A DNA stretch of 63,326 nt, the filler included, from Aduncisulcus paluster (lineage: Eukaryota), in NCBI GenBank assembly GCA_024181965.1. It is 5 parts of 5 records of this genome, joined end to end, with 100 filler letters (N's around TTAATTAATTAA, not from the genome) between each part and the next. Parts side by side here need not be neighbours in the genome. Positions count along the whole stretch, not along the records: positions 1 to 24,997 come from BQXS01010121.1; 4 more parts are not named here. One strand, given 5' to 3'. The notes beneath the pieces were generated by a model. The model was not told where the DNA came from. It worked only from the letters and a program-made list of their open reading frames with translations, and searched no databases. The stretch's first letter is position 1. The number at the start of each line of letters is the position of its first letter. This document shows positions 5,403-40,100 of the stretch, piece after piece. A program made the translations under genes and the position numbers.

Positions 5403-6020
5403 TTACTCTTTTTCATCGGGAAGAGACCGATCTTTGGGAGCAATATCTGCCCTTGGTTCCTTGGCCCAAGGTTTGCCCTCAAAAGCCCCCAATGAGAAAT
5501 ATGAAGGGCCTGAGAAAGAAAATAACAACGGATTCACTTTCCTCATATCCAGATGAGTTTTTTCAGGATCAAGAACTGACTCATCAGCAAGGGATGATTC
5601 TAATTTTCCTATAACAGCTGAACTTGTAGGATAATCATGGATATCAACAAGGGAAAATGACATGCAGATTGGAAGATTCCCAGCCATCGGACACAGCCTT
5701 TCGGAATCTTCTTCATGATAAAATGTTTCAAATTTCCCATTTTTAATTGGATCTTTGGTAATTCCTGCAAAATTAACTTCATCTAGAGTTTCTATGCTCC
5801 CAATATTCACGCTGAATTGTTTTTCCCTTCTAATATTTTTCAGAGTATTATGACCTTTGTTCATTCCAATGCATATCATCAAAGGTTGAATATTAATCCA
5901 AGTTATAAAAGCGAAAGTCCCATAATTTGGAGATCCATCGAGATTGCGAGTTCCGACAGCTGTGACAGTGGAAACAAGAGATCCATGTAGTTTTGAGTGA
6001 TGAAGTTCAACTTTACCCAT
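5403..6020 (-). CDS. Flavin reductase-like FMN-binding protein (flavoredoxin type)
   Basis: ATG at 6020; VGTRNLDGSPN, PLMICIG, HNTLKNIRREKQFSVNI and terminal Y..LG...G..W motifs. Confidence 0.85.
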   Translation of the reverse strand: MGKVELHHSKLHGSLVSTVTAVGTRNLDGSPNYGTFAFITWINIQPLMICIGMNKGHNTLKNIRREKQFSVNIGSIETLDEVNFAGITKDPIKNGKFETFYHEEDSERLCPMAGNLPICMSFSLVDIHDYPTSSAVIGKLESSLADESVLDPEKTHLDMRKVNPLLFSFSGPSYFSLGAFEGKPWAKEPRADIAPKDRSLPDEKE

Positions 6021-6336
6021 AACGTAAATATCTTGATTATTTGAAAGGCAGAGATAATGAAGGATTTCACTCAATCAGAAGAAAATTGGAATTTCCAATT
6101 TGGAATCATTGCAAAATCACTGATTTTAATCCATTTCCCCCAAAGCCCCCAATAAAAACACTTTACTATCTATTAATTTTAAATATTAAAATTTAATATT
6201 TATAAAATCTTAACAAAAAAAAAAAAATTACGTTGACTTGACGTTGTTGAGGTTCTCGCTAAATGGTGAGGCTCAAATAGTGAGGAAATATTATTCATTG
6301 TTTTCCTTTTTTTTCAAGAATTGCAAGTCATAATCA

Positions 6337-6978
6337 TCAATCATCAAATTGATCCCAACTGTCTTCCTGATCCTCGACAATAATACTTTCAAAGAGATCT
6401 TCAAGACCCAGTAGACCCAAAACATCAGGTTTAACAGGAATAGCATCAGGTAGACAAAGTGGGTATGAACATTCATGTTGGGCTAAGGGAAGTATTCCAA
6501 GCGAGATAACAGGAGATAGGCTGGATGAATGAAACATTCTAATCGAGGGGCGATCAAGATGTGGAATAAATCTGCCCAAGCTTTTCTGGGAAAATAATAC
6601 GGAAGAAGAATAAGATTCAGCAAATTTGGATTTCATTTTCAAAAGATCTCTTAAAAACTCGATTTCTTCATTTGATAGTGAAATATCACCCAATTCATCA
6701 ACCAATTCATCAAATTTGGAATACATTGATGCAAATAATATTGCAGAAGTAAAATTTATGGGAGAACTGAAAGAATTAGGCTTACGTTTGTGATGGAAAT
6801 TTTGGGGGAGTTTTTCCACAGTATCGAATTTATCTTCCTTTGGACGAGATTTTAGCATGTCAACTTCCTTTTTACATTTTGAATTCGCGATGAGAGCCCG
6901 GATTGAACGGTATCCACGAGATCTTCTTAAAGATATTAAAGAAGCCTGTCGTTTGTTCAATAATTCAAGGGGATACAT
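6337..6978 (-). CDS. Hypothetical protein (213 aa)
   Basis: ATG-started ORF between AT-rich intergenic regions; no family recognised. Confidence 0.55.
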   Translation of the reverse strand: MYPLELLNKRQASLISLRRSRGYRSIRALIANSKCKKEVDMLKSRPKEDKFDTVEKLPQNFHHKRKPNSFSSPINFTSAILFASMYSKFDELVDELGDISLSNEEIEFLRDLLKMKSKFAESYSSSVLFSQKSLGRFIPHLDRPSIRMFHSSSLSPVISLGILPLAQHECSYPLCLPDAIPVKPDVLGLLGLEDLFESIIVEDQEDSWDQFDD

Positions 6979-7257
6979 TGAATTTTCATGATAACAGCTT
7001 GATTAATAATTTGGATAGCGAGAAAAACGATATCGAGGGAATATATCACTTATAGAACCATAATGGACAATATTTTCACATTCCCAATCTAATTTTCAAC
7101 CATATTTATCCTTTATTTTCTTTCCTTAAGCTTACTTTCCACTAAACAAAGAAATTGATGGAATACTATTTTTAGAAAGTACAATCTCACTCCACCAACC
7201 CTATGCAATCCTTTACCCCTCCTCCTTTTCCGAAGGTTAATATATAGAACTGCAATA

Positions 7258-8121
7258 ATGGTTAATTTCTTCAACTCTCTCCCTAAGGACGGTCGCGTAT
7301 CTTCTGCTGCTAAATCATCTCCCGCCAAGATCACTCAACCCAAGAAAAAGGTCCCTAAGAAGAAGCCTGTTGATCGTATGTATTTATAATTTTTATTTTT
7401 TTCTCTGCTCCGATTTGTTTTTATTGATAATTTTTTCTTTTACTTCGCTTCTTAAGGTGTCGGAAAATCCAGCACTGCTCTCGGTGAGGATTGGATCAAG
7501 AAACAAGAAAGCCTTGAAAAGGATACCAAGAAAAAGGTAGAGACTAAACGTCCCCCACACAAGAAGGAAGATACCAAGCGTCCTAAGCGTGAAAAGGATC
7601 ACCATGTCTCTGGAACTGGCCTCACCAAAGCTAACAAGAAGGGTGGCCGTGGAAAGGGAAACTGGGGTGATGCTACTGCTAAAGTTGATATTGTTGAAGC
7701 TAAGAAGGAGGCCAAGGGTGAGAAGGTTGAAGTTGTCGAGGAGGTCAAGCCTGAGGTTGTCGAGAAGAAGGAAGAGGCCAAACCTGAGCCCAAGATCCGT
7801 TCTCTTGACGAGTTCGAGCAAGCCCAACGTACCATTAAGCCCAAACACAAGAAACGTAAGGTCGAATCTTCTTTGACCGTTTCCGCCGCCACCAAGAAGG
7901 AGACTGGAAACGAGTTCGCTTCTTTGATGAAGAAGAAGAAGGCTCCCAAGAGCAAGACCTCTCAACCTAAGGTTGCTGATATCACTGCTCATGTTCTTGA
8001 CGTTGACGCTCAACCTAGACGTGGTCCTAAGAAACCTTCCCGTAAGGATGGTGGAAAGAAGTTCCAGGGCCCTCGTAAGGATCAGCCCAAGAAGCCCCGT
8101 ACTCCTCCCAAGAAGGAGTAA
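7258..8121 (+). CDS. SERBP1: SERBP1/HABP4/Stm1-family RNA- and ribosome-binding protein, 2 exons (7258-7375, 7457-8121), 260 aa
   Basis: Spliced translation contains KREKDHHVSGTG...KKGGRGKGNWG and RSLDEF motifs; Lys-rich. Confidence 0.85.
7376..7456 (+). other. Spliceosomal intron (81 nt)
   Basis: GTATGT...TAAG, T-rich, contains an in-frame TAA; removal restores the ORF. Confidence 0.85.
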
Positions 8122-8885
8122 CTTTTCAAAACAACATTTGGAGTGAATTGAAAAGTTGTTCTCATTATGCAGTAAACATATTTCCCCTCCAGAATCATTC
8201 AATGATTGAGAAGTTCTCGAATGCTTTTTGACACAAAACTATGTGATATTTGTTTTAAATCTCAATGCTAAAATTTGACAACGAGTTGTTGATAACATTG
8301 ATCCTGTGCTCTATTCTTCATCCACTGTTTCAGGAAGTTTTTTGGAACCGTTCAGAAGAACGGTCCATAAATGTGACATTTAATTATGAAAATTGGCTTT
8401 TGACAAGATAACCACATAATCAATGATCAAAACCATGTTTATATGGTTTTATTGACTCAAATTGAGCGATCGTACTTAGTATTCTATGCATTCTGGGCAT
8501 TTGGAAGAATCTTCAGGTGTGACACTTGAAACAATGGGAGATTAAGGTTTATATCAAGTTGGAAAAGAACAAAAACTTATTATTTACTTTAGAAATTGAG
8601 AAAAATATAAGATCAAAACACATAAGAAACATTATTGAGCGAGATAACAAAATCTGCTTTGAAATTATGGATGATTTTGAAGGAGGGTTTTGAAATCCAG
8701 TACTAAACTGTACGATCCGTTTGTTAACAAGAATGGGTTCTAAAGAGAATCCGAATTAAAAAAAAATTGAAAAATAAAGTTCCAGACTTTCAACACTCCA
8801 GAAAAGATATTATATATAGATAGATAGATATTGTTTCATTAACATTAATTCCGATGAATCAATCAATAAAAACACTGGAAATATA

Positions 8886-11800
8886 TCATTTTTGGTAATG
8901 AACTGGTTTGACACGAGGGAAAAGATCAGCAACCTCCACAAGAGTTTTAGGATTGCCACCATGCCACACTGCTGGTGTACATTGGCACATTTCTTTGAGA
9001 ATATCTCCAAAATCTGGCTCACACCCTCGTAGATGAGCGCATAGGGAATGTGATACACCAATTGTCCTCACTCCACACTCGTAGAAGAAACTCGGCATCG
9101 GGGAGGATTGTTCTGATGCCTTACTGATCGGAATTGAGGAAAGAATATCCTTGGGAGATGAGGATGAAGGCGATGAAGATGAAGAAGTGATAAGAGCTGC
9201 GAAAGTAGCATCCTCAGTGGAAACCTTTTCACCAAGACGAATCATTCGTACCAGAGTACCAATCAAAGTCTTGAGTTCACGAACACTTCGATACATACAC
9301 CCAAAGCCCAAATCCTCATGATTCTCGTCATCCACGGCACTTGAATCCTTCCTTCTGACCTTCGCAGACGAATCACGAGCCATTCTCTTATCCCTGTATT
9401 TCTCAGTAAATAGCATCGATTGTGTCAGCAACCGGAGACCTGCCTCGCAAAGGTCAAGCATGGAACGCACTGTTTTGGGACTGAAAGGGATTCCACATCC
9501 ATTCGACACAGTAAGAGCAGACTCGTAGATTGAAGGTCTTCGATCAGAACCCTTTTTCTCAAGTTCAGCCCGGACATTATCCCATAATAAATCTTCAAAG
9601 ATACTAACACTATTCGAACCCTCAATAGTGGAAGTTTGGCGGAATAACTCTATTTTTTGGGCAATGACAGATGCATACAGTCCACACAGATATTCAACGC
9701 TCATTGAATCCGACACTGATGTTGACCAATGTGACAACACCGAATTCATCCAATCTCTATATTTAGTACTTGAGAGAACAATTAATACAAATATACTCCC
9801 TTCTCTTAGCAACGAATGAATGAGGATAAGAAGATGTAAAGTCTTTTCGGGATGCAAAAGGTTCATTTGTTTGTGCATAATCGTGTTAAGGATTGTCACA
9901 GCAGCCTCTTTTCCATCCTGCCAGGTGTGTGTGATTAATTTATATATATACTTACTCTTGACATCAGCTTTTGTTTTCAGTATCTTGTTAATAACATGAG
10001 AAATCGAACGAATTTTAATACATGGAGTTTCACCGAGACGAAGGNNNNNNNNNNNNNNNNNNNNTCTTAGCAACGAATGAATGAGGATAAGAAGATGTAA
10101 AGTCTTTTCGGGATGCAAAAGGTTCATTTGTTTGTGCATAATCGTGTTAAGGATTGTCACAGCAGCCTCTTTTCCATCCTGCCAGGTGTGTGTGATTAAT
10201 TTATATATATACTTACTCTTGACATCAGCTTTTGTTTTCAGTATCTTGTTAATAACATGAGAAATCGAACGAATTTTAATACATGGAGTTTCACCGAGAC
10301 GAAGGGTGTAGAGCGAGGAGAATCTTGAAGGGATAATCATTGAATACTCGAGGGAAGGAGAGGGATACAGGGGACCGTGATGAGACATATGCATTGATTC
10401 GGACACAAGAGAAGAGGAAGAAGAAGAGGAAGAAGAATTACGTTTTGATTGTTTCAGAGAAGGACCAATAATGATTCGAGAGGAAGATGAAGAGTAGGAA
10501 TCCGTATCTGAAGAAGAGATAGGGGTAGATATTGTGATAGTGTCTTGTGAATGAGAGTCTCCTTGAGTGCTTGAGGTGGCATCTGACCACATGAGAAGGG
10601 AAGAAAGATTACTATCTAAAGACTTAGGACCAACTGGATGAAGTGTGGAGGGTTTTGTCTGAGAAATAGGTTTTAAAGGCTTTGAGGATTTCGATATCAT
10701 TTGAGGTTTATCAACTTTTTGAGGATTTTTCTTGACTGAAGTAGTATCTTGACTTGGATTATCTTGCATTTGGAAGGCCTTATCCCAATCGCTATCTCCA
10801 CCTTTCCCATCTGTGACAGTCTGAGTGTCTCTAGGAGAAGTAAAATCGTCAAAGAAATGTTCAAGAGAAAAATCAGAGGTTGGACCACTCTGAGCTTGTT
10901 TGGGTTGTGCTGTGGATTGTGGTTTAGGTAGGTCCTTTTCAAGCTGTTTTGGATTCGATACAATAATAGAGGGAACACTTGAGTCTGGTCCAATATCAAA
11001 TGCATCTCCAAATACATCGCCAGAAGCGAATGTATCATCTGGAATGGCAGCAGTAAAATCACTTGGAATGCTCTTATCTGCATTTGTACTCCAAAATGCA
11101 TCAAATGAATCATCTACCATACCTTGTTTGGGGTTATCTCCCTGCTGTTCTTCCTCCTCTTCCTCTCCTTCCCTTCCAAACAATAATCCTTGCTTTTCCT
11201 CAGAGTTAAGGTCAGAATCATCATTTGAGCCATCAAATGGGATAGGATTAGCACCATCAGTATCCATTCTAGCAGATGATACCTTTATATCTTTTTCTTT
11301 TCCTCCACTTTTGTCGGCCGATGTATCAAATCCATCATCAAAATCATCCCATTCTTGTCCAAAACCATCTTTGTCAGTGCTTTCAAACCCATCATGACCA
11401 GGACGATTATGACCACTTGTTGAATCCAAATCAAACCCGTCGAGAGCACCACTATTGGAAGTATCCTTTAGTTCAATGAATCCATTCGATTGAGTTTCAC
11501 CACCGTCACCTTTTTCGTCCTTATCCTTACAACAATCTGCATCAACAGGACCAGTTAACTCACTGGAACTTTCTGAGCTACTCGATTCCTCGTCGGCATT
11601 TTTACCGGTGCCATCACCTGTATTGTTATTATGATCGATGTATTTATCATCTTTGTTATGATGTTGATCCATATCCGTCGATTCTGATCGAAGAACAGGT
11701 CTGGAAGTATCAGCGATTTCTTTCACATCTGGCACAGTAGACAAAGACGGAGCTTGTGTAAAGGATAACATATCAAAAATATCATCCGTAGATTGGGGAG

Positions 11801-12902
11801 TCTTCCTTATTTCCTTTGATTTTGTTTTCTTATGCTTGGTCTTAGCTTGAGCGAGGGAAGCACTTTTTGCCTCCTCCTCTTCTTTCTTTCGAAGTTGTTC
11901 CTTGAGTACATCTATTTGTTGGCCCCTATCAATGTCACAGACTGATTCACACTCAGCTACCACACCTGACATGACCCCCAATTTCTCACATTCTTCGAGA
12001 ACTTCCCAAATCGTGGGACGGTAGATAGGGTTCTTAACAAGCATGAAATCAATCATATGATACAAGGAGGAACTATAAGAGCGAGTTTTTTCAGTCTCTT
12101 CACCCTTGGGATAAGAGAACTTACCAGTTCTGATGGCTAAGTTTGTCATTTCCTTATCATATGGAGTGCAAAAGAAAGCTAGTTTATACAAAAGAATTCC
12201 AAGCGCCCATATATCTGTCTTTTCAGTTATTGGGAAACCACTGAACAAATCACACATCTCGGGTGCTCGATAAAACAATGTTGTGGTCTTGCTAATACTT
12301 GATTCGACTTCAGAACGAAGACGAGAATCACGACGGAGTGCTTGACCATCAAAGAAACGTTGAGTGGTACATGAACCAAAATCACACAAACGGACGGCAA
12401 TATCGGCAACCCGAGGAGATACTTCGGCCAAATTGCGAACCTTTCGCTTTGTACACATCAAGATATTCTCCACTTTTATGTCTCTATGTATAATTGGTTT
12501 TGGAGAATTGGAATGCATCGGGCAAATGGCCTTCAAAACAGCAGCAAACATGTGCCAGATAGTGGGTTCAGAGAAACGAGAATCAGAAAAATCAATCATT
12601 AATTCAGCAAGGCTTCCACCAATACACAATTCCATAGCCATATAGAATATAATAGAGCCGGAAGAACCCTTTTTAAATTCACAACTATCAAGAAGAGTTG
12701 GCACACTTCTAATCCCACGAAACTTATTCATAATCGCTATTTCTTTTCTACATTCAGAAACAGCTTTGGAGGACTGGGCTATCACTTTCTTTAGAGCGAC
12801 AGGACTTCCATTACATAGAGCATAATAGACATAGGCATATCCACCTTCCCCTATCAATTTTTGGGGTGAGTAAGTATTCTTTCCAATGATAATATCTTCC
12901 AT
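8886..12902 (-). CDS. NAK-family (AAK1/Ark1-Prk1-like) Ser/Thr kinase with C-terminal ANTH-like domain
   Basis: IGEGGYAYVY, PIIHRDIKVENIL, LCDFGS, TTLFYRAPEM.DL, KTDIWALG; C-terminal KTLHLLILIHSLLREG. About 80 aa are artefactually duplicated at the gap. Confidence 0.9.
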   Translation of the reverse strand: MEDIIIGKNTYSPQKLIGEGGYAYVYYALCNGSPVALKKVIAQSSKAVSECRKEIAIMNKFRGIRSVPTLLDSCEFKKGSSGSIIFYMAMELCIGGSLAELMIDFSDSRFSEPTIWHMFAAVLKAICPMHSNSPKPIIHRDIKVENILMCTKRKVRNLAEVSPRVADIAVRLCDFGSCTTQRFFDGQALRRDSRLRSEVESSISKTTTLFYRAPEMCDLFSGFPITEKTDIWALGILLYKLAFFCTPYDKEMTNLAIRTGKFSYPKGEETEKTRSYSSSLYHMIDFMLVKNPIYRPTIWEVLEECEKLGVMSGVVAECESVCDIDRGQQIDVLKEQLRKKEEEEAKSASLAQAKTKHKKTKSKEIRKTPQSTDDIFDMLSFTQAPSLSTVPDVKEIADTSRPVLRSESTDMDQHHNKDDKYIDHNNNTGDGTGKNADEESSSSESSSELTGPVDADCCKDKDEKGDGGETQSNGFIELKDTSNSGALDGFDLDSTSGHNRPGHDGFESTDKDGFGQEWDDFDDGFDTSADKSGGKEKDIKVSSARMDTDGANPIPFDGSNDDSDLNSEEKQGLLFGREGEEEEEEQQGDNPKQGMVDDSFDAFWSTNADKSIPSDFTAAIPDDTFASGDVFGDAFDIGPDSSVPSIIVSNPKQLEKDLPKPQSTAQPKQAQSGPTSDFSLEHFFDDFTSPRDTQTVTDGKGGDSDWDKAFQMQDNPSQDTTSVKKNPQKVDKPQMISKSSKPLKPISQTKPSTLHPVGPKSLDSNLSSLLMWSDATSSTQGDSHSQDTITISTPISSSDTDSYSSSSSRIIIGPSLKQSKRNSSSSSSSSSLVSESMHMSHHGPLYPSPSLEYSMIIPSRFSSLYTLRLGETPCIKIRSISHVINKILKTKADVKSKYIYKLITHTWQDGKEAAVTILNTIMHKQMNLLHPEKTLHLLILIHSLLRXXXXXXXLRLGETPCIKIRSISHVINKILKTKADVKSKYIYKLITHTWQDGKEAAVTILNTIMHKQMNLLHPEKTLHLLILIHSLLREGSIFVLIVLSSTKYRDWMNSVLSHWSTSVSDSMSVEYLCGLYASVIAQKIELFRQTSTIEGSNSVSIFEDLLWDNVRAELEKKGSDRRPSIYESALTVSNGCGIPFSPKTVRSMLDLCEAGLRLLTQSMLFTEKYRDKRMARDSSAKVRRKDSSAVDDENHEDLGFGCMYRSVRELKTLIGTLVRMIRLGEKVSTEDATFAALITSSSSSPSSSSPKDILSSIPISKASEQSSPMPSFFYECGVRTIGVSHSLCAHLRGCEPDFGDILKEMCQCTPAVWHGGNPKTLVEVADLFPRVKPVHYQK
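9804..10305. repeat. Duplicated overlap around a 20-N gap
   Basis: 9804-10044 is repeated at 10065-10305. Confidence 0.9.
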
Positions 12903-13135
12903 TATAACAAATAATGATGGAAGATAGCCAATAGTGTTTGCAAAACAGCCTGGCCAAGATGTCTAATTCTTTCCCTGACTCGGAGTGGGGCATAACCTGA
13001 AAAGAACAAACAATGAAGAATTAAATATTGTTTATTGTGAATTATTTCTAAAAAGTAGTTATCAACATTATCAGAAAAACAAAGGGGTTGTGAGAAAAAT
13101 ACGAATCAATGATGACATGCTAAAATGGATTAATA

Positions 13136-13831
13136 TTATGATGAATCGTAAGAATACTGTTCATCAGGTCCCTCAAACTCTTTAAAAGAACTTGATTGAA
13201 GTTGAGCATCCTCTTGTGAGTATTCTTGAGCTTCATCGATTCTGCCTTCGGTTAAATCTTTCGATTCATCAATATCGAGTCTTGCATCTTCAATAACAGA
13301 TTCAACAGTATCAAGATCTCTCACATTTTCTCTGAGAATTTCTTTCTGTTGTCTGTGTTCACTCGTGGATCGACATTCTTCTTCGCTACTCGGGTCTTGA
13401 TTTTTCTTTGGGGCGAAATGTTCATACGAAGAGTGGTCATATTCGCGGGAATATTCGTCATCCCTGGGAGATTCATCTTCATCGTCATCTTCAATGACTG
13501 GAGGGGGCCACTTTGCAGGTCCACCACAAACAACACCAACAGAGTTTCCACTGCTCATAAGAGCAATGTAATCCTTTCCATTGCTTGATGGGGCGGTTGA
13601 AACATATCGTGATTCAATGTATCCTTCTTCCTGCATATAACCATCTTCATCTTCGCCCTGATCATCACGGGCATATTCAAAATAAATTGGAACACGATGT
13701 ACATGCCCACAAAAGGCAAGATTACTGATGCGTTTAAAAGGTTGGGCTCTTTGGGGTACAACGTTATGTATATCCATATCATCAACAGAAACAACATCAC
13801 CAGCTCCTGATTTAGATGCTCCGGCTCCCAT
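13136..13831 (-). CDS. Hypothetical acidic protein with N-myristoylation-like start
   Basis: 231-aa ORF beginning MGAGAS (MGxxxS). Confidence 0.7.
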   Translation of the reverse strand: MGAGASKSGAGDVVSVDDMDIHNVVPQRAQPFKRISNLAFCGHVHRVPIYFEYARDDQGEDEDGYMQEEGYIESRYVSTAPSSNGKDYIALMSSGNSVGVVCGGPAKWPPPVIEDDDEDESPRDDEYSREYDHSSYEHFAPKKNQDPSSEEECRSTSEHRQQKEILRENVRDLDTVESVIEDARLDIDESKDLTEGRIDEAQEYSQEDAQLQSSSFKEFEGPDEQYSYDSS

Positions 13832-14155
13832 ATTTTATGTTATTAGTATTAATTCTATATAAATATTTATAAATCAACAGATGTAATCACTCGGATTGGA
13901 AATTCAACGAGAATACTTGTTTATCAGAATATAAGAAACAAATATTATTAATGAAAGTAAAAAATGCTGGAATTTAATTCCAATAGGGAGGAATATGTGT
14001 CAAAATCAAGTGTGAATTGAAAAACATTTCTAAATTCTGTATAAGACCCTTTATTTTGGTATTAGCAAATAAAAGTTGAATAAAAATAACGTATCCATTT
14101 TACTATTTGATAGATGGAGGAGGTTGAAAAGAGCAATAGCTCAGAGTAAAAATCA

Positions 14156-15193
14156 TTAGCGCCAACCTCCCCACAATCGCCTAAAAAACCGTGACACGGC
14201 ATTTCCACCTTCACCTCCGGAGCTTCGTCCATCATCATGTGATGATCTCCCTGAACCAGAATCTCTTGGTCCCCTTCCTCGGTGTCTTGGAGGAGGTTCA
14301 TCACTGACGGCATAATAATCGGTTGGCCTTCTATAAGTTGGTAAAAGATGTTTGAAATACTCAACTGGTTCAAATGTTGCATCAGGATGTTGGGTTCCAT
14401 TGAATAATCCTTTTATATAAACACGCTCACATGTTTCTTTCTCCAGAACATGAACAAAAGTCATATGTTCACCATTGGTAAGTTCAACGGCAGCAACAAC
14501 ACGCACGTGATTTGAACATAACTTTAATACGAGATTGAATGGAGGATGAGTGAGTGAAAATCGCGATTTGTTAAAAGCAGGATGAAATACCCATTGAATT
14601 TTCTTAATTGAGGGCACAGGTGCGCCAAGAACTGAACTAACGGGTGGAGGAACAACCTGAAGCTGAATATTGAACCATCCAGTTGCACGCAATCCGAGAG
14701 ACAAAACTTCAGGTGATGGCTCTGAGGGAACAGCGATATTCTTGATCTTCCATAATCTTGTACTAAATTGATCCATTGAAATTGTTCTTTTACAAATGGG
14801 ACATAAATCGTGATTGTAATGAAGCCATTCAAGCAAGCAGTGACTGTGGAATTGATGTTTGCATGGCATTGTGATTATCGAAGAGGCAGGAATATCCCTT
14901 TTTGGATTAATATTATCAAGGCATACAGCACATTGCTCAAGTTCATCACTATCTTCCTCTTCATGGCCATCTTCTTCGTCTTTCACAGCTTCTTCTCTGA
15001 CTTCATCACCGGATAGTTTCAACCCACCAATTCCAGCTCCAACTACTGGCGGTCTAACTTTTGATTCTTCGTCTTCTTCTGATTTGATTGAGATTGTGTC
15101 GGTTGGAGGGTGGGGAACCGGATGAGAGGAGGGGAGAGGAATATGGGTAGGAGCTGATGGAATATCATCATGAATTTCTTCTTCACTTTCCAT
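14156..15193 (-). CDS. RING-H2 protein with YEATS-like domain
   Basis: CAVC...CKHQFHSHC...CPIC (RING-H2); IKKIQWVFHPAF....LTHPPFNL resembles the YEATS core. Confidence 0.8.
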   Translation of the reverse strand: MESEEEIHDDIPSAPTHIPLPSSHPVPHPPTDTISIKSEEDEESKVRPPVVGAGIGGLKLSGDEVREEAVKDEEDGHEEEDSDELEQCAVCLDNINPKRDIPASSIITMPCKHQFHSHCLLEWLHYNHDLCPICKRTISMDQFSTRLWKIKNIAVPSEPSPEVLSLGLRATGWFNIQLQVVPPPVSSVLGAPVPSIKKIQWVFHPAFNKSRFSLTHPPFNLVLKLCSNHVRVVAAVELTNGEHMTFVHVLEKETCERVYIKGLFNGTQHPDATFEPVEYFKHLLPTYRRPTDYYAVSDEPPPRHRGRGPRDSGSGRSSHDDGRSSGGEGGNAVSRFFRRLWGGWR

Positions 15194-15837
15194 TTTGGGC
15201 TTTGAAAATTGTTATGGTTTTAAAATTAAAAAAATAATATGAATTTAGATGTTGGTTAACGGGGATGTCAATGAGAAAAATAGACTTCGTCGATCCTTTA
15301 TGGAAATAAACGAAAATAAAACAAGAAGGTCTAAGCTATAACTAACGCAAACAAAAGGGAAATGTAGTATTTGCCGGGAAGAATTAATAGTTAGTACTTC
15401 GAACGAACAAACGAACCTTAAAGGTCCCATTATAATAGTTATGTAATTACTCTCTTTTTTTCAAAGCGATATGAAATAAGAGAAATGGAAAAACGGTCTG
15501 ATGACAATGATAGTCATCAATTTTGTTCCATTTCAATAAAACTTTAATAAGTCAAGAAATCCCAATAAATTCAGAGATTAAACTCAAGAAATCATAAGAA
15601 AAATGTATCAGTAAAAGTGAAAAATAGGGAAAAATTATGGATCAGACCTTTACAGCGCAGCAAAAGCCAATTTTCACTTAGAGGGAGAATTTTTAATGCT
15701 GAAAAAAATACAACGGTTTATTATTTTGATATCATTGGTTTTATAAAAACTTTATAATTTTAATTTCCAAATACTGTCAAAACAGGGATAGTTGGAAAAA
15801 AAAAAGAAATACTGTTCGATTTTCTTTGCTTTCACAC

Positions 15838-16035
15838 ATGTGCCACTGCTACTGTAGACTTTGTATGTTAATATTTGTTTTGGTTTTTGTCGTTCCATGA
15901 AATTTTTTGCTTTACATCCATACTTTCATCAATCATTGTTTCCTTATAGTCATTGCATTAAGTTTTCTCATATCTTTTGGTTTGGCTACCCTCTTCGGTA
16001 TTGGGTGGTTACTCTTGGGGGATGGTTTTGATTAA
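15838..16035 (+). CDS. Putative 36-aa single-TM microprotein, 2 exons (15838-15862, 15950-16035)
   Basis: Intron GTATGT...ATAG at 15863-15949; spliced product MCHCYCRLFIALSFLISFGLATLFGIGWLLLGDGFD. Confidence 0.55.
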
Positions 16036-16188
16036 TGTTTACTATTATGACATCTGCCACTACCGTAGTGTACAAGTGACTAGGATATAAATTTCCAACT
16101 AAACAGTCCATATTCTCCTTTTTTATTCTCAATATTTAATAAATAACGTAAATTGTTGCCATATTTTGACAATATTTAGTTCGAATTC

Positions 16189-16914
16189 CTACCACACCAA
16201 TTCATCGCCGTCAACAGCACATTCTATTGAATAGGATGCTGTTTTCTTCGTTGATCTCGATTCAATTCCCTTAATATCTTGTTGAGTTCCCTTTTTAATT
16301 CCCTTATCAAGTAATTTCACAGGATCTGGATGGTGGGGGATCGATTGAAGAATCCTATCGAATACGTCAGAAAATACCTGATAAAGATTATATTCTGTCT
16401 TCGCACTAACTGGAAAAAATGGCATATGACGTCCAGCTGCCCATTCTTGGGCAGATGCCTCAGGAACAATCCAATCAAGATCAGATTTCATTCCAACAAG
16501 AACAAAACGACGTTGGCTTGGATGAGGGATTAAATGAAGTAATTTCTTGTAAATAGTGGTTAAATATGTTAGAGATTCTTGATTTGAAACATCATAACAC
16601 AGGATAAATCCTGCACATCCAGAACAAAGACTCAGTATCATATCCTCATATTTTTCTAATCCATTTACATCCCAATATTGAACACGAAACAGACGTCCAA
16701 GAAGCGGATAGATCTTTGTTTTGAAAGTAATGCCTGGCTCATGAACAGGAAAATCATATTGGAATTTTTCAAGGGTGGGATCAGCATCTTTGTCAGGGCC
16801 TTCCGTTAATGTAATATATCCTTTTAATAACGATGTTTTACCAGATCTGGACGCTCCTAATATTGCAATCTTTAAAGAATGAGCGTATTTGGCGTTATCT
16901 GGGTAGAGATCCAT
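16189..16914 (-). CDS. Divergent Rab-like small GTPase
   Basis: G1 GASRSGKT, G3 WDVNGLE, G4 GMKSD, G5 VSAK; no C-terminal prenylation motif. Confidence 0.85.
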   Translation of the reverse strand: MDLYPDNAKYAHSLKIAILGASRSGKTSLLKGYITLTEGPDKDADPTLEKFQYDFPVHEPGITFKTKIYPLLGRLFRVQYWDVNGLEKYEDMILSLCSGCAGFILCYDVSNQESLTYLTTIYKKLLHLIPHPSQRRFVLVGMKSDLDWIVPEASAQEWAAGRHMPFFPVSAKTEYNLYQVFSDVFDRILQSIPHHPDPVKLLDKGIKKGTQQDIKGIESRSTKKTASYSIECAVDGDELVW

Positions 16915-17141
16915 CTAAAATGAGTAAAAAAATAATTAACAATGTATGAAGTTATTTTGTTGAGGCAATTTAATAATGATTACCAAAAAAAAAGGTATTT
17001 TTATCGTTTGATATGTCGAGAAAACCGGATTTCGGCTTCCAAGCACCAAGAACTCGTGCTTGAACTAGTATGAGAGTCTCATGATTAATAATTGGGTTGT
17101 ATCCATGCAGTTTATATTTATTTATATATAATGAATATTTA

Positions 17142-19625: not shown

Positions 19626-21341
19626 ATGCCCGAAACTACATCAACCAAATCAATGGATGAAATTCCATCTCAGGATTTCAAAGATGATTCTGAGTCATCT
19701 GAAACTGACCAAAAAGATGGTTCTTTGCTTTCTTATGATCTTCTTAAACGTCTTCAACACTCTGCTAAACATGCTCGTCAACGTGGAATTGTCCTTCCAA
19801 CTCTTGAGCAACAACAAAATCCATCATTGATTCCTGATGAAATTCGTTCATCTTTGAAATCTATTAATCCTGAAGCTCTTGATCCTCTGAATTTGTTTCG
19901 AATCAACTGGTATAATGATGGAAAAGGTGGGTTTTCTGATATTCCTGCCCATATCGTTCTTCCTCCTTCCCTTACTGGACTTAAGTGTAAGGTTGCTGTC
20001 ATGCTTGGAGCCTTTTTCCCAACTGGAGCCCACAAGGTTGGAGCTACGTATTCTGTTCTCTCTGACAAACTTGTCACTGGAGCGTTCGATCCATCAAAGC
20101 ATACAGCCGTGTTTCCATCAACTGGAAATTATGCTCGTGGAGGAGCTTTCAATAGTAGCCTCCTCGGTTGTAAAAGTGTAAGCATTTTGCCCAAGCGGAT
20201 GTCACGGGAGCGGTTTGAAGACTTAGCCAAATTGGGAAGTTCGATTATCAAAACTCCCGGTATTGAATCTTCTATCAAGGAAGTATTTGACACTGCTGAT
20301 CGTCTCGTTCGTGAGGATCCCGAGAATGTCGTTGTTCTGAATCAGTTTACTGCTCTTGAGAACAGCATGTGGCATTACAACTGTACTGGACCTGCATTGG
20401 AAAGTGTCTTCGAGGCCGTTCGTGGTGAACGTGATGAGCTTAGTGGTGTATTCATGTGTGCTGGAAGTGCTGGAACTCTTGGTGGTGGTACTTACCTCGT
20501 TGACAAGTATCCTGGCGTCAAGTGTGGTGTTGGTGAAGCTATTCAATGTCCTACTATGATGTCCAACGGGTTTGGGGAGCATAGAATTGAAGGAATCGGT
20601 GATAAGCACGTTCCATGGATATTCAAGGCCCGTACACCCTCTCTCATTGCCGGAATTGATGATAACCATGTTATGCGTGTGTTCAGACTCTTTAATGAGC
20701 CCGCTGGAAGAGCCTATCTGCGTAAGACATGCCCTGATATCGATGAGGCCTTCATTGAATCATTATCCTTGCTTGGTATCAGCTCTGTTGCTAATATTCT
20801 CGGTGCCCTGAGTATGAGTCGTTATTACGAGTATGGACCCGGTGATGTTGTGGTCACTGTTGCCACAGATACGTCCAGACTCTACCACAGTCGTCTTGAA
20901 ACATTGAGGATGACACAGAGAACAACTGAACACATTGCCACCGCTGACAAAGCTGACGATGAGCTTTACTCGGAAATACATGCCTCTTATGATGCCAAAC
21001 TTCTTCGTGGAGAGGCTCCTCTTGTTGTCAAGGAACTCCTGTTCTCTGACAAGAAGCGTATCCACAACCAAAAATACACTGGTTGGGTTGAGCCTGGAAA
21101 GAAAACTATTTCTGAGTTGAAACAGCAGTGGTCTGATAAGTCGTACTGGCAGAAATCATATGCCAAATTCGATGTATTGAATGAACGTATTCAGATGTTC
21201 AATCGTCTCATCTTCGAGGATGCTTGTAAAGAAGGCGATATTGACATGGTTCAGAGAAGTGCCAGTGTATGTGGTATCCTCAATCCTGAGTGTTTGTTGC
21301 ACTCCCATTCTGAGGGTTTGAGCAGCGAAGAGGAGGAATGA
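19626..21341 (+). CDS. Fold-type II PLP-dependent enzyme (cysteine-synthase-like, bacterial type)
   Basis: FPTGAHKVG (PLP lysine), PSTGNY, LNQF, AGSAGT, HRIEGIGDKHVPWI, GISSVAN, TVATD. Confidence 0.85.
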   Translation: MPETTSTKSMDEIPSQDFKDDSESSETDQKDGSLLSYDLLKRLQHSAKHARQRGIVLPTLEQQQNPSLIPDEIRSSLKSINPEALDPLNLFRINWYNDGKGGFSDIPAHIVLPPSLTGLKCKVAVMLGAFFPTGAHKVGATYSVLSDKLVTGAFDPSKHTAVFPSTGNYARGGAFNSSLLGCKSVSILPKRMSRERFEDLAKLGSSIIKTPGIESSIKEVFDTADRLVREDPENVVVLNQFTALENSMWHYNCTGPALESVFEAVRGERDELSGVFMCAGSAGTLGGGTYLVDKYPGVKCGVGEAIQCPTMMSNGFGEHRIEGIGDKHVPWIFKARTPSLIAGIDDNHVMRVFRLFNEPAGRAYLRKTCPDIDEAFIESLSLLGISSVANILGALSMSRYYEYGPGDVVVTVATDTSRLYHSRLETLRMTQRTTEHIATADKADDELYSEIHASYDAKLLRGEAPLVVKELLFSDKKRIHNQKYTGWVEPGKKTISELKQQWSDKSYWQKSYAKFDVLNERIQMFNRLIFEDACKEGDIDMVQRSASVCGILNPECLLHSHSEGLSSEEEE

Positions 21342-22001
21342 ATAATTTTCGAGTTTTGATATGATTATTTGAACCCTCATTGATATTGGTCAGATTTTTG
21401 TCATGTTTCTTTTTTCTTGACAAGATTGCAGTGCAAGTCATTGCCAATGATTTTTTTTTCTTGAAATCTTAATTTTTCCCCCCTTTTATGCCATAACAGT
21501 GTTATTAATAATATTAATAAATTCATGTGTCACAGCGTTTGAAAAATCTGATTCTCAGAGATTCAACAATATTTTTATATTGATTTATATCTGAACCACG
21601 GGAGTGAACATAAATGTATCCATGCTGGTGTTGTTAAGCTGAATAAAATGCTCAGTTTCGAAATATGAAAATCTTGGGTTTTCTTCCGGTTCTATTATGG
21701 TCTATTCTTTAAAATTTGGTGAAAGGATATATTTTTACAACGAATTTGAGTGATAATTGATTTATATATATATTTTAACATTTTCAAATCCAGGATCGTT
21801 GTTTTGTTTGTCACACCTCTTTTCATGCGAATTAGGAGCCAATTTTCAATCATATTACATATTTAAAACAATATAGTGATTTTACTCGCATGAATTTATG
21901 TTTATTTCTTCTGCAAATCAAATAGTATGGTGGAATATAAAATGTTTCAATAAGATCAGAAGTTGTTTTACCCATTTTGCAAAATAATTTATGATATAGA
22001 T

Positions 22002-24737
22002 ATGGAATCTTTCAATTTTTTAAAGCAAAGTATGCATATTAATTCGTCAACCATTTTTCAATATAATCTTTTCTTAGATCTATTTATACTCTTTCTAATT
22101 TTCCATGTATTCTTCAAATTCACCAATTTACTCTCGAAAGATTTAGTTCTTAATGGATATTCTGATTCTTTTAATTCCTTGCTTGTTTCTTTTCGTGAAC
22201 TTATCGAAAACTCGATGGATTCCTTCACCGAAACCTCAAAAACAATATTTTCTCCAAATGCGAATGTTTTTATTCGCCAACAAAGTGTTGATATTGAGCT
22301 ACCATTCGGATATCCACGATATTCTTCACTTCGCGGATTTCATTTTGATAGGGTGAATGACTCGATATTTTCCTTGTTATGTGTTGATAATGGTTGTGGA
22401 ATTTGTGCGGAAAGAATTAAATCTTGTTTAAGCAAACCTTTTCATACGGATAAATCTGCTGAACCTGGAAAAGCTGGTCGATATGGGGTTGGGCTAAAAA
22501 CAGTTATAATTGCAAGTCAGATCCTCTTTGGAATCCCTTGTTTAGTCTTAACAAAGACTATTGAGGATGAATGTGTTCGTGTATATTCAATTCACCTCGG
22601 AGAGCGGCATCTGAAAGTTCGTGAGCATGAAACACTTCAATTCGCCTCAAAACTCCAAGCCTTGCAAAAATCGCAACAAATTTCGAGCATTGAGCTGTCT
22701 TCCATTCGCATCCAGCCCTTCTTACGGCATTGTTTCCAAGATCAATATAATCTTAGTTCTGTTCTTGAATTTATTAGTTCCCATAGGTGTAATCCTGATA
22801 TTTCTCCCTCTGATTGTCCTAGAACACAAGGAACTTTGGTTTATATTCCTTCTATGAGCGGTTGTGCCAGAGCGAGTAGACGCATTCTGAGTATTGGCAG
22901 AGTTCTCCAAGTATTTTGTCAAAATGCCTCCGTAAATGTCAATGTTGGGTCTGAATGTACCATTATAAAGGATAGTATTTGTCCTATGACCGAAGTAGAT
23001 TCAATTCTTCATGATGGAAATGAACAAAAAGAGGATACAGTTGAGGCTGAAGATGAGGAAGAGGAAGAGGAAGAGGAAGAGGAAGAGTTAGCAACAAATC
23101 AGCTGGGCTTTACGAACATGGATGATTCATTTGCTCGATTCTTGCGGCGTGAACTGTGTCCTGATCGGTTATTGTCGAGCAGATTGACAGATTCTGAATG
23201 GATATCGGTGTCAGAGGCTGACCGAAGAGTTCAAGGAAGTCGGGCAAGGAGATCTATGACAAACTTGATACGTAGTCTCTCTGATTCTGTTGACACTGGC
23301 AAGGAAGAGAAAACGGGGAAGAGGGAAAATCATTCAGAAAAGGATAAAGATTCAGCTATTTTGACAGATAGACAAGGCAAAGAAGATGGATCATCCAAAA
23401 TAATATCCAATACTTCTAATTCACCAGTGTGTGTACTTGATGGCCAAACAACTGAGAAGAAAACTGAAAAGACGTCTGATTTTGTTAGCGTCCGGAGCCA
23501 TATTGGTCTTGTATTCCATCCTCCAGATTCCTACTCTCCCCCAGTATCTGTTGATCCTACGGTACTCATTCCCTTGTATTCTGTGTCATTGGCAATCGTT
23601 CGAGTTGTCAATGGGGTCGTTCTTCCCCCTAATAATACCTATGAGCACTCGAAGCAACACCTTAGGCTTAAAGTAACTTATGGAGGGAAAGAAAGAGAAA
23701 GATCCCGTGAAAGCTCAAGAGATTATGTTTCTCCACCGACAGATCCTCTATTGTGTGCAACTATCTCCACCTTAAAGACTGAAGGGATGATTTCCTTCGG
23801 TAGTTTGTGTGAAGAATCTGATAAAAGTGCTCAAAAAGAGATCAAACAAGAGTCTGAATCTGGCATCTATTCTGGTGACCCCTTGAAGTCCTTTGAATGT
23901 TCAGATACCCTTAATCAGTGTGCCTCCGTGTTCAAAGTTCGTTCAAATGCACCCTATTTGAAAGCAATCGTTGTATTTTGTTGTGTTAAGGGTGGAGAAG
24001 ATGTTGTTTTTGATAATTGGACAAAGTCTTCACTCTCTCCTTCAAATATAATCCATTCTCTCTGTCTCTCTTGCTCTTCCATGGCCATTCGAAGGATTAT
24101 CAGAGGTCACAAACACATGATCTCTTCTGCTTCTTCTCTTTCTCATGTCAACAAACGACACCATTTGGTTAACATTGCTTCTTTGAGACCCATCCATCAC
24201 CCTGACATGTCCCATCTCGTTTCACTGTTGCTTCCATCCCCTGTGGACCTTGCTCGCATTAAGAATATTCAAATGGGGTGTATTTTAGTCGATAGTTGTC
24301 TTCAGGAGCTTATATACAGTGAATGGCCGAGTGTACGGGAGAGAATGGTTCTTTTATGGAAAAGAGTGGAGGGAAAAGGAAAGAAACTGAGAATGAGAGA
24401 AGAGGAGAGAGAAGAGGAAGAGGAAGAAGAGGAAGAAGAGGAAGTTGGAAATTCTTCTATTTTGGAATCTGATGTTTCACAGTCTTCACAGTCGTCTTCT
24501 TCATCTTCCTTTCAGAGGGTTGAAGATGAAAGATCACATAAACACGAAGGTTCTATTTTTAGAAATGTTGAGAAAGAGATAGAAACGACTGGGCGAATAA
24601 TGTGGACGGAGAGAAAGGTTTCAATCCTATCTGAAGTATTGTGTTGTTGTATTAAACGGGCAGTTCACTCCAAGGTCTGTGTTGGAGATATTGATGTCAA
24701 TAATTATGAAAGAAAGCCAAGGAAAAAATCAAAATAG
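22002..24737 (+). CDS. TOP6B: DNA topoisomerase VI subunit B-like GHKL ATPase, 2 exons (22002-22029, 22141-24737)
   Basis: Spliced N-terminus FLKQNLVLNGYS..NSLLVSFRELIENSMDS; DNGCGI; GRYGVGLK; later F...TK transducer-like segment. Confidence 0.75.
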   Translation: MESFNFLKQSMHINSSTIFQYNLFLDLFILFLIFHVFFKFTNLLSKDLVLNGYSDSFNSLLVSFRELIENSMDSFTETSKTIFSPNANVFIRQQSVDIELPFGYPRYSSLRGFHFDRVNDSIFSLLCVDNGCGICAERIKSCLSKPFHTDKSAEPGKAGRYGVGLKTVIIASQILFGIPCLVLTKTIEDECVRVYSIHLGERHLKVREHETLQFASKLQALQKSQQISSIELSSIRIQPFLRHCFQDQYNLSSVLEFISSHRCNPDISPSDCPRTQGTLVYIPSMSGCARASRRILSIGRVLQVFCQNASVNVNVGSECTIIKDSICPMTEVDSILHDGNEQKEDTVEAEDEEEEEEEEEEELATNQLGFTNMDDSFARFLRRELCPDRLLSSRLTDSEWISVSEADRRVQGSRARRSMTNLIRSLSDSVDTGKEEKTGKRENHSEKDKDSAILTDRQGKEDGSSKIISNTSNSPVCVLDGQTTEKKTEKTSDFVSVRSHIGLVFHPPDSYSPPVSVDPTVLIPLYSVSLAIVRVVNGVVLPPNNTYEHSKQHLRLKVTYGGKERERSRESSRDYVSPPTDPLLCATISTLKTEGMISFGSLCEESDKSAQKEIKQESESGIYSGDPLKSFECSDTLNQCASVFKVRSNAPYLKAIVVFCCVKGGEDVVFDNWTKSSLSPSNIIHSLCLSCSSMAIRRIIRGHKHMISSASSLSHVNKRHHLVNIASLRPIHHPDMSHLVSLLLPSPVDLARIKNIQMGCILVDSCLQELIYSEWPSVRERMVLLWKRVEGKGKKLRMREEEREEEEEEEEEEEVGNSSILESDVSQSSQSSSSSSFQRVEDERSHKHEGSIFRNVEKEIETTGRIMWTERKVSILSEVLCCCIKRAVHSKVCVGDIDVNNYERKPRKKSK
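22030..22140 (+). other. In-frame, stop-free intron (111 nt)
   Basis: GTATGC...AAAG, T-rich, internal CTAAT; removal restores the Topo VI-B N-terminal motif. Confidence 0.7.
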
Positions 24738-24997
24738 AAATTTTTTCTCTTAGAAGTTCTAAAAATTGCTTTGGATGATGTTTTACCGATCGCAAGGAGG
24801 GAGCTTCCTTCAGCGATCATTTTAAAGTTACAAACAACTCCGCCACTCGTGCTGTTCGCTCTGCCTTTGATAGTAAGTTGGACACTTACAAGAAAGCCAG
24901 AAATGAGCTTCTCAAAGATCGTGAGCGACAGCGAAATCGAGATCGATCGCCCAACTCGGTTTCTCTGCAACAAGAGGCTGAAAGGATATTCTGTGAT

Positions 24998-25097
24998 NNN
25001 NNNNNNNNNNNNNNNNNNNNNNNNNNNNNNNNNNNNNNNNNTTAATTAATTAANNNNNNNNNNNNNNNNNNNNNNNNNNNNNNNNNNNNNNNNNNNN
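24998..25097. other. Artificial scaffold spacer
   Basis: N44-TTAATTAATTAA-N44, giving stops in all six frames. Confidence 0.95.
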
Positions 25098-37048: not shown

Positions 37049-37148
37049 NNNNNNNNNNNNNNNNNNNNNNNNNNNNNNNNNNNNNNNNNNNNTTAATTAA
37101 TTAANNNNNNNNNNNNNNNNNNNNNNNNNNNNNNNNNNNNNNNNNNNN
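37049..37148. other. Artificial scaffold spacer
   Basis: N44-TTAATTAATTAA-N44. Confidence 0.95.
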
Positions 37149-37149
37149 A

Positions 37150-40100
37150 AAAATAGCCCCAAAAGAGTTATTTATGCACTGTTCTAGCGATGAAATTGGA
37201 GAACGAGAGGAACAAGAGATTAAGTCTGAGGCCAAGGGCAAAGATATCAAAGGCTCCAAGAAAGGTGGAAAACAAAGATCCGGGTCACCATCTGCTGTGA
37301 AGCAAGCTGAAAAACTTGAAGAGAAAGAAGAAAAGAAAGAAGACGAGAAAGAATCCAAAGATGTATCTGAGCTTCCAAAAGGATTCCCAGATCCATACCT
37401 TCCCTTCTCTCCCTCTATTCACGTGTGTGAGCTTGTATCCAAGGTTATTAAAGTGAAAGGAGCTGGAGTGATTGATGCTGCCTCAACCTCCAAGGGGAAG
37501 AAGAAAGAGAGTGGAAAGGACAAGCAGGGCGGAACAGATGAGTCATTCTCCATTGAATTCCTCCAATCTCTTCAAGAGGCTTCTCTTGGAACCCATGTTT
37601 CCCTTGCTTCTGAAGCAGAAGACTACCAGCAAGGACAAGACGTTGAACATGAAGATAAAGAGGAACAACATAAACTTCAAGTGCATTCCAATGTATATAC
37701 GTTTTCCCCACCTTCAGATGTGCCTCTCTCTGTTTCCATACCCATTGTCACAACTGTCCTAAGTGCTCATATATGCACTCAGCAATGGTGTAGACGTGTA
37801 TCAAAGCATTGGGAAAGAGATGATGTTCTCCTGAAACGAGAAAAGAAGAGAATAGGACAAGTTACTAAACAGCTCATGAAACTTCGTTCCAAAATGTCCC
37901 TTGTCCAAGGAATAATCCAAGACATGTCCTTGTGTTCTGACGAAAAGCGTGCCGAGCTTATCAAACGCAATAATGGGATCTCCATTGAACAACTTGAGGC
38001 CTCTCTGGCTGCTTTGAACAAACAATATGACTCTATCTTGGAATATCCTGATAATTTGGGACCCTTATCTCTCTGCTCTGTACTTGCTGACTTCTTTGAA
38101 CCCCCTCAACCGGAGTCTATTGCCTTATATTGTCCTGCGATAATCGAACGAACAGAGAAACTCATTGAAAAGTCAAGAAAAGTCAAGAAGAAATTTGAGG
38201 AAGCTCTTCTTCAGTACAATCGTTCCATCCGAGTCTGTAACAGACGTATGGAGCTCTTTTTGAATGAGTTAGTTTGTGAGTTTATTTCAACATATCTTCC
38301 ACATGTTACGTCTCATAACAACAATGGTGGAAAGAAGAAGAGAAGTCCTAAATCTCACTCCAAGTCTCAGTCTCATGGAGGTTTAGGTTCCACAGCATCC
38401 AAGAAGGACACCCATGGTCAATTGACAAGGTCTGGTGATGGTGATGATGGAATTGAACACAAGGGTAGCTCTGGTGAAAAGATTAGTCCCGGTGATGTTC
38501 TTCAGCACTCCTCCTCTTCTCTCTCATCTCGAGCTACAAGTGTAATCTCCACCGTTCAATCTCTGAGAGAGGCAGAAGAGGAACAGCTTCGACTTGAGGA
38601 AATGGAGAGGGAAAAAGAACTGCGCCTAACCACTTTAAGACATACAACAAGACGTTCAACCACTTCCGGCAAACTTCCAATGAAAACACAACGTACCATG
38701 AGTGAGATTGCTGCTGAGACTGCTGCTAACAATGCTCTGACTTCCTTTGCAGACATGACCAACTCTAGTTCTCTTTTCGATTATGCTGTACCTTTTGAAG
38801 AGTTTATCCACCGTATTGTTGCTCGCGGAAGATGTTTATTACCCGACGGGAAGAATAAGAGGAAAGGCGAGTCTTTGAGGAAAGCTTCCCTTGCGCAAGC
38901 TGATGGAAGGACTACGACTTTCGTTGATTCTAAACGGGGCAATTCTTCCACTTCTGCTACATCTGACCCCTCTTCTCCTTCCTCTGGTTCTTCTGCCAGT
39001 TTCTTTGCTGGACTTGGTTCATTCCTGTTTTCTTCATTCTCTGACTTGGCCGATAATGGCCGGCGGGAGCTTGAGAACGTTTGTGTCCGGGNNNNNNNNN
39101 NNNNNNNNNNNAGGACTACGACTTTCGTTGATTCTAAACGGGGCAATTCTTCCACTTCTGCTACATCTGACCCCTCTTCTCCTTCCTCTGGTTCTTCTGC
39201 CAGTTTCTTTGCTGGACTTGGTTCATTCCTGTTTTCTTCATTCTCTGACTTGGCCGATAATGGCCGGCGGGAGCTTGAGAACGTTTGTGTCCGGGTTGGA
39301 GAAGTGGTGGTTGGAGAAGGAATAGGAATGGACGCCATCTCTGACATTGAGGACCAGCTCGTAAACCCTTCACTCCACATTCAAGGGACTGATGAAGATC
39401 ATCTCACTCGTGATCCTGAATCCTTGATTCCTGTTGACCATGTTGACATGGGTGGAAATACAGCCACCTTGATTGGAAACCCTGATTCAGGAACCTATAA
39501 TCTGGCTGTGAGTGGCGATTATGCTGTATCTGGCCCTTCCAGAAAGCGTGGAGACAGTGTTTTCTCTGTACAAGATGGATGCATCCTGACAGTTACTCTC
39601 AATGAAGTTTTTTCTTCTTTTGTTGAACTCTTGCGTCAAATTCTGATCCATGTCCTTCCCTTCATGCTTGAGTGTCTCTCTATCTCTCTCACAGTTGAGT
39701 GTTGTCACTTGTGGATTCAAAGGGAGAAGGATGCAAGGAAAAAGGACCAAGATAACCAATTTGTCCGTTCTATGAGAAAATCTGAACCAGGATGGATGTT
39801 ATCGATCGTTGAAGAGAAAGAAAAGGAAAGAGAAGTGAAGAGAAGAGAGTTCATTGATGAATTGTTGAAGGAAAAGGCTGCTGAACTTGAGAGTGGGAAA
39901 GGAAAGGATGGCAAGAATGCCGGAAAAGGTAAGAGTGGGAAAAGCAGTGGGCCTGGGAATGGCAAAGGAAATAGTGGTGACTCCAAAGACAAAGGGAAAG
40001 GTGGAAAGAAAAAAGACTCTTCTGTGCCAGAATCTATTCTTGACTCCTTGCCCAAGACATCCCCATTCTCTCTGCTGTTATCTTCGTTATCAGTGGAGGA

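Follow-up and report, generated by a model that had tools for sequence, protein, structure and literature searches.

Of all components of the machinery that makes meiotic breaks, the B-like subunit is the most difficult to detect, and most fornicates are not known to have sex. The present analysis concerns a gene of the free-living fornicate Aduncisulcus paluster whose product carries an ATPase domain of the type found in subunit B of topoisomerase VI (Top6B). The gene is located at positions 22002-24737 (plus strand) of a 63,326-nucleotide stretch of DNA from assembly GCA_024181965.1; this whole stretch is referred to as the window, and all positions are counted along it. The closest described systems are topoisomerase VI subunit B itself (TopoVIB) and the TOPOVIBL proteins, which act with Spo11. 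According to Brinkmeier et al. (2022, PMC9665070), the hallmarks of TopoVIB are an N-terminal strap, the N, G1 and G2 boxes, an H2TH domain, an anchoring Asn, a WKxY motif, a switch Lys, and helices that bind the A subunit. TOPOVIBL proteins, according to the same authors, have lost the H2TH domain, are variable in the GHKL domain, retain the helices, and evolve fast; some protist members keep the strap and all three boxes, and in many lineages the transducer is undetectable by sequence. TopoVI is given there for only Archaeplastida, some opisthokonts, and SAR (stramenopiles, alveolates and Rhizaria), with no BIN4 or RHL1 in excavates. In the figure legends of the preprint (10.1101/2022.05.08.491100), Carpediemonas membranifera appears in GHKL alignments of TOPOVIBL, and Giardia intestinalis is listed as having a TOPOVIBL. 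Absence of H2TH from all topo VIB-like proteins and considerable divergence of metamonad GHKL-like folds are stated by Allen and Maxwell (2024, PMC11302465), whose supplement names Giardia alone.

An open stop-to-stop frame extends over positions 21954-24737 on the plus strand, follows an in-frame stop at 21951-21953, and has its first ATG at 22002. Read straight through, it encodes 911 amino acids (P0001). A word-indexed search with this form returned a single match, the NCBI protein ADUPG1_007074 (P0002), a "hypothetical protein" of A. paluster that is 99% identical and differs solely in the removal of the 37 residues that follow MESFNFLKQ. The gene at 22002-24737 thus has two exons, and its spliced product P0002 comprises 874 amino acids and starts MESFNFLKQNLVLNGYS. 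Exon 1 (22002-22029) supplies MESFNFLKQ in 9 1/3 codons, the intron (22030-22140; 111 nucleotides) has GT..AG ends and is in frame and stop-free, and exon 2 (22141-24737) ends at a TAG stop; after splicing, the frame is uninterrupted over 875 codons. Contigs of the one public run in which the stretch was found (X1; culture-derived), which is stored as contigs and whose RNA nature is a guess, were compared with the window, with the two acidic runs of the gene skipped as repeats. One contig, at a depth of 52.3, joins 22029 to 22141 at the GT..AG ends, and another, at a depth of 39.4, spans 22000-22170 and keeps the intron. Over the rest of the gene, including exon 2, the run X1 contigs are collinear with the window and show no other splice joint. 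The splice drawn in the initial annotation agrees with both the NCBI model and this contig joint, and its assignment of the host to the metamonads is correct, A. paluster being a free-living fornicate (Metamonada). The splice model holds as annotated, and there is a spliced molecule. The gene is apparently transcribed, the sole sign of this being the spliced contig from a run that is only guessed to be RNA.

The contig that keeps the intron could represent pre-mRNA, DNA in run X1, or a second isoform. If the intron were retained, the short N-terminal segment would be separated from the N box by an additional 37 residues, most of them hydrophobic. A further contig of the run shares only 46 nucleotides with the window (22177-22222), which encode the N box, and its flanks are similar but not identical to those of the window; it may derive from a diverged second copy or an allele elsewhere in the genome.

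Residues 1 to about 300 of P0002 (22002-23012, intron excluded) are a Top6B-type GHKL domain, with a likeness far beyond chance. The NCBIfam Top6B equivalog models NF003218 (E 1.1e-14, 53.9 bits) and TIGR01052 (E 1.4e-11, 43.6 bits) both match residues 5-161, with scores far under their equivalog cut-offs of 274 and 380.7 bits, respectively. The next NCBIfam family is sacsin (E 0.0028). Pfam gave only a weak match to HATPase_c_3 on the head (E 0.002, under the cut-off). When all PDB sequences were searched, the top four matches were S. shibatae Top6B (E 0.006-0.007) and the remaining six were noise. Models for MutL, MORC and Hsp90 were not listed for P0002 in NCBIfam, and these families were not among the PDB sequence matches.

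Comparisons with eukaryotic TopoVIB were based on P0003, a 223-amino-acid TopoVIB fragment (NF003218 E 3.4e-51) that was the lone distant match of an exhaustive phmmer search. This fragment seeded a collection of 1245 relatives, the best 120 of which were used for family counts, and an alignment of 25 eukaryotic TopoVIB (A1) was drawn from its relatives. Residues 5-144 of P0002 matched A1 in hhalign with a probability of 96.3% (E 1.9e-9), and the profile alignment of the head gave a z score of 17.6 against 200 shuffled sequences, none of which (0/200) reached the real score. All of the collected Top6B proteins (121/121) matched residues 1-300 in phmmer. An alignment-free model of the same residues from the ESM Atlas resembled ten GHKL clusters at template modelling (TM) scores of 0.63-0.66; nine of the ten are named topo VI-B and eight also carry the TopoVIB transducer family PF09239. 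With an AlphaFold2 model as the query, Foldseek ranked 12 Top6B chains first (E 1.6e-5 to 1.6e-3), followed by GRP94/Hsp90 (2e-3), MORC2 (2e-2), and MLH1/PMS2 (4e-2); this model had been built with a TopoVIB alignment and is therefore biased toward Top6B, so the ranking was counted as weak. The NCBIfam, PDB, hhalign and Atlas evidence agrees on the Top6B-type head proposed by the initial annotation, and the comparison with MutL, MORC and Hsp90 that it had called for placed all three far below Top6B, the best match being neither MutL nor MORC.

The N box RELIENSMDS (residues 28-37; 22194-22223), the G1 box VDNGCGI (residues 91-97; 22383-22403), and the G2 box GRYGVGLK (residues 122-129) align with the corresponding boxes of S. 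shibatae and eukaryotic TopoVIB. The N box of S. shibatae reads RELIENSLDA, its Glu and Asn falling opposite Glu29 and Asn33 of P0002, and in the alignment A2 the N-box columns of R28, E29, E32, N33 and D36 are invariant. In G1, D92, G94, C95 and G96 occupy invariant columns, and the segment from the ATP-lid Lys114 through the G2 box (22452-22499) keeps K114, G122, G125, G127 and K129. The Glu and Asn and the other box residues presumably act as general base, Mg ligand and adenine contact, roles described for S. shibatae Top6B. With Glu29 and Asn33, the Asp and glycines of G1, Lys114 of the lid and the glycines of G2 all in place, the head can plausibly still bind ATP, judging from its sequence. 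The ATP-binding motifs had been described as intact, which holds for the three boxes but not for the lid: the motif RQTR, which S. shibatae shares with 23 or more of the 25 TopoVIB of A1, reads PGKA in P0002 (R>P118, Q>G119, T>K120, R>A121), and SGS reads HTD. The N-terminal strap appears to be almost absent, as P0002 starts 1-2 residues before the SPAEFF-like segment and the shortest of the 25 TopoVIB rows has nine residues there. P0002 is identical to TopoVIB at only 29 of the 94 GHKL columns that are strongly conserved there. The replaced RQTR and the apparently very short strap point to a change in ATP turnover or in ATP-driven dimerisation relative to a true topo VI.

The two thirds of the protein beyond the head match nothing. 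Across the remaining ~570 residues, Pfam, hhalign, hidden Markov models (HMMs), shuffle-controlled alignment, the Atlas and AlphaFold2 revealed no H2TH domain, transducer family or confident fold. A first acidic run (E315-E325; 23049-23087) lies directly behind the GHKL domain, and a second (residues 763-777, with the glutamates at 767-777; 24399-24443) near the C-terminus. These two Glu runs are the long acidic inserts of the initial annotation; they exist, but outside the ATP-binding fold. The middle region (residues ~301-454; 23013-23474), which is rich in charged and Ser residues, is where H2TH is located in TopoVIB. An H2TH HMM built from A1 gave only a 14-residue match there (337-350, E 0.5), and the shuffle test gave a z score of 1.3, with 17 of 200 shuffles at or above it; the region was modelled at a predicted local distance difference test score (pLDDT) below 50, and an H2TH remnant could escape notice. 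Residues ~455-745 (23475-24347) form a C-terminal region that is a candidate for a diverged transducer with helices. The C-terminal tail (residues 778-874; 24444-24734) consists of a Ser-rich stretch, a Cys-rich segment and a basic end; it gave only low-confidence helices and no Pfam family match. As a TopoVIB the protein is non-canonical, with no PF09239 match at E<=10, no H2TH detected, and a lost RQTR lid.

We hold, with moderate confidence, that P0002 is a TOPOVIBL-type Spo11 partner, a very divergent topo VI-B-like protein of A. paluster. It fits the TOPOVIBL pattern as given in PMC9665070 and PMC11302465, in which H2TH is lacking, evolution is fast, and the GHKL boxes are kept in some members. 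Its orphan status, with two proteins at E<=0.001 among 1.84 billion, fits fast evolution as well. Under this proposal, the C-terminal ~570 residues would hold a transducer too diverged to recognise, whose helices would dock onto the N-terminal helix of Spo11. Like the TopoVI-like complexes of meiosis, the resulting complex would introduce programmed double-strand breaks, and ATP binding to the head would modulate dimerisation. We infer from this a possible link to Spo11 and cryptic meiosis. The original proposal of a Topo VI or Spo11 partner in a metamonad is thus borne out for the Top6B-type head and the metamonad host, but not for a complete Top6B or TOPOVIBL, neither a transducer nor an H2TH having been detected.

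Several results weigh against a TOPOVIBL-type partner of Spo11. Neither Pfam (PF09239, E<=10) nor a transducer HMM built from A1 matched P0002, and hhalign of residues 440-760 against TopoVIB returned a probability of 0.16%. In profile Smith-Waterman alignments against 200 shuffles, the transducer plus helices scored z 0.36, and two further tests gave -0.3, also for the C-terminal region, and 0.66. When the protein was added to the TopoVIB alignment with MAFFT --add, it was identical at 24 conserved transducer columns; 40 shuffled C-termini averaged 19.0 +/- 2.9 such columns (maximum 24), and the real substitution score of 46 lay below the shuffle mean of 52. No three-helix Spo11-binding domain and no WKxY tryptophan was identified in P0002 by sequence or model. 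The Atlas model of residues 455-770 resembled unrelated clusters at TM 0.18-0.29, none higher. Protein and metagenome searches provided no orthologue linking P0002 to the Carpediemonas or Giardia TOPOVIBL, and a literature search found no paper covering both Aduncisulcus and Spo11. No transducer fold was predicted, an outcome that the initial annotation had itself set against its reading; the models concerned are of low confidence (AlphaFold2 pLDDT 33.5 from the single sequence, and 43.3 with the TopoVIB alignment, falling to ~30 across residues 470-640) because P0002 lacks alignable relatives, and the missing transducer is therefore a failure to see rather than a demonstrated absence.

In the unreliable MAFFT placement, the transducer anchor columns read N>P542, W>Q579, Y>E582 and K>E629. 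The motifs FLxxEL, LxPL..Y, GGK, PLL, PDxS and a "switch Lys", picked out by eye in the same alignment, were rejected, since shuffled controls yielded equal numbers; caution is warranted for collinear C-terminal "motifs" of this kind, which in a global alignment are no better than chance. Helices at 643-674, 678-689, 700-706 and 710-720 appeared only in the low-confidence TopoVIB-guided model, where some of them reached a pLDDT in the 50s-60s, and had no sequence support.

That neither sequence nor predicted fold gives a match for two thirds of the protein speaks for a lineage-specific ATPase in which a Top6B-derived GHKL head is joined to an unrelated C-terminal region and which would work independently of Spo11, perhaps clamping chromatin or some other substrate in an ATP-dependent manner. 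Coverage of the gene by contigs in the culture-derived run X1 and the lack of any orthologue among 1.84 billion representative proteins are in keeping with such an ATPase. However, transducers that escape detection are known for TOPOVIBL in many lineages (PMC9665070), and an unseen transducer is therefore expected of a TOPOVIBL-type protein too. Moreover, no alternative domain was found, and the one weak Atlas lead (feature score 0.88) was to the S5-fold domain of Morc6, which belongs to the same fold class as GHKL transducers. We regard the Spo11-independent ATPase as unlikely, though it survives better than the other alternatives. A related and somewhat less likely proposal is that the protein, rather than being a transducer-bearing partner of Spo11, represents a new architecture, with an ATP-competent Top6B-derived head, a minimal strap and a ~570-residue unseen domain, in which the ATPase module of topo VI would have been recruited by a fornicate lineage for a job besides strand passage or meiotic breakage.

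The intact N, G1 and G2 boxes and lid Lys, the archaeal-type Top6B HMMs as best match, and the faint 14-residue H2TH match at the expected place would suit the B subunit of a genuine, merely very diverged, ATP-driven topo VI, working with Top6A/SPO11-3 in decatenation or endoreduplication. The family counts point the other way: PF09239 was present in 108 of the 120 listed TopoVIB (the best 120 of 1245), and the 12 without it were all truncated, at 474 amino acids or fewer, whereas P0002 lacks it at full length. The H2TH match does not rise above chance, RQTR is missing from the lid, fewer than a third of the strongly conserved GHKL columns are kept, and the distribution of TopoVI given in PMC9665070, with neither BIN4 nor RHL1 in excavates, does not extend to this host. 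A genuine topo VI is accordingly very improbable. A decaying or functionless remnant, or an artefact of the gene model, might be suspected from the extreme divergence, the long low-complexity runs, the lack of orthologues and the similar depths of the intron-keeping and spliced contigs, but has little to commend it against an uninterrupted spliced frame, a spliced contig, and the retention of every tested ATP-binding box residue in an otherwise very diverged sequence.

The search for relatives covered several collections. An exhaustive phmmer search of 1.84 billion representative proteins at E<=0.001 returned two proteins, P0002 itself and P0003, and no orthologue. Word-indexed searches found only ADUPG1_007074 with residues 40-340 of the unspliced form, and only the protein itself with residues 1-300 of P0002, even at E<=10. 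No orthologue was found in a scan of Joint Genome Institute (JGI) metagenomes, and a scan of prokaryote genomes with A1 found none, its patterns being too eukaryote-specific. Within the window, there is no paralogue of P0002, and no Spo11-like gene was present among the 28 large open reading frames scanned.

The other large open reading frames of the window are ordinary eukaryotic genes, including those for kinases, a pyridoxal phosphate (PLP) enzyme, RuvBL/TIP49, CFAP58, Ras, RING and Mak16 proteins. The upstream neighbour (19626-21341, plus strand) encodes the PLP-dependent enzyme, of 571 amino acids (PALP, E 1.7e-15), which is extended by ~115 acidic, Ser-rich residues at the N-terminus and by ~150 residues at the C-terminus, with no family match. 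Just 3' of the Top6B-like gene, a small open frame (24779-24997, plus strand) is cut by the contig end; word depths of the run X1 contigs are about 6,000-17,000 over this frame, versus 225-380 over the Top6B-like gene. Positions 24998-25097 hold two runs of N around a TTAATTAATTAA linker, where the window is stitched from separate contigs (the NCBI contig with the Top6B-like gene has a length of 24,997 nucleotides), so that adjacency across this point is meaningless. Very long open frames encoding 700-1170 amino acids with no Pfam match at E<=1e-5 occur at 37105-42985 (plus strand), 54400-57818 (plus strand), and 59168-62674 (minus strand).

As a result of this analysis, a protein so far labelled "hypothetical" in a free-living Giardia relative is annotated as a Top6B-like ATPase with its ATP-binding boxes in place. 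If it is paired with Spo11, it would provide a data point on the use of ATP by early-branching TopoVI-like complexes and another on whether organisms of the Carpediemonas type retain the meiotic toolkit. The gene is of use chiefly as a starting point for tests of that toolkit. Proteins of this kind are already known from metamonads, as TOPOVIBL is listed for Carpediemonas membranifera and Giardia in the figure legends of the preprint cited above (10.1101/2022.05.08.491100), and the advance is an incremental one, since earlier reports of TOPOVIBL whose GHKL boxes are conserved cover Carpediemonas membranifera and other protists.

Among known systems, the GHKL domain of P0002 finds its best match, by both sequence and fold, in topo VI subunit B (S. 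shibatae 1mx0/1z59/2zbk; M. mazei 2q2e and 9o0g; NF003218 and TIGR01052). The two share the Top6B-specific segment before the N box (..F.L..N..L.GY....SL..S.RELIENS.D). P0002 differs from subunit B in its length of 874 amino acids, in the ~570 residues without a match, in its two poly-Glu runs, in having no detected H2TH or PF09239 transducer, and in keeping about one third of the invariant TopoVIB columns. With the other GHKL ATPases (MutL/MLH1/PMS2, MORC, Hsp90/GRP94 and sacsin) it has the Bergerat fold in common, but at far lower scores than with Top6B. P0002 differs from the TOPOVIBL/MTOPVIB proteins that have conserved GHKL boxes in that neither their defining three-helix Spo11-binding part nor the W of WKxY was found in it, little of the strap is evident, and other residues stand in place of RQTR in the lid. 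What P0002 shares with these proteins is a Top6B-type head with N, G1 and G2 boxes, the lack of a detectable H2TH (in a region of pLDDT <50), a very fast-evolving remainder, and a metamonad host.

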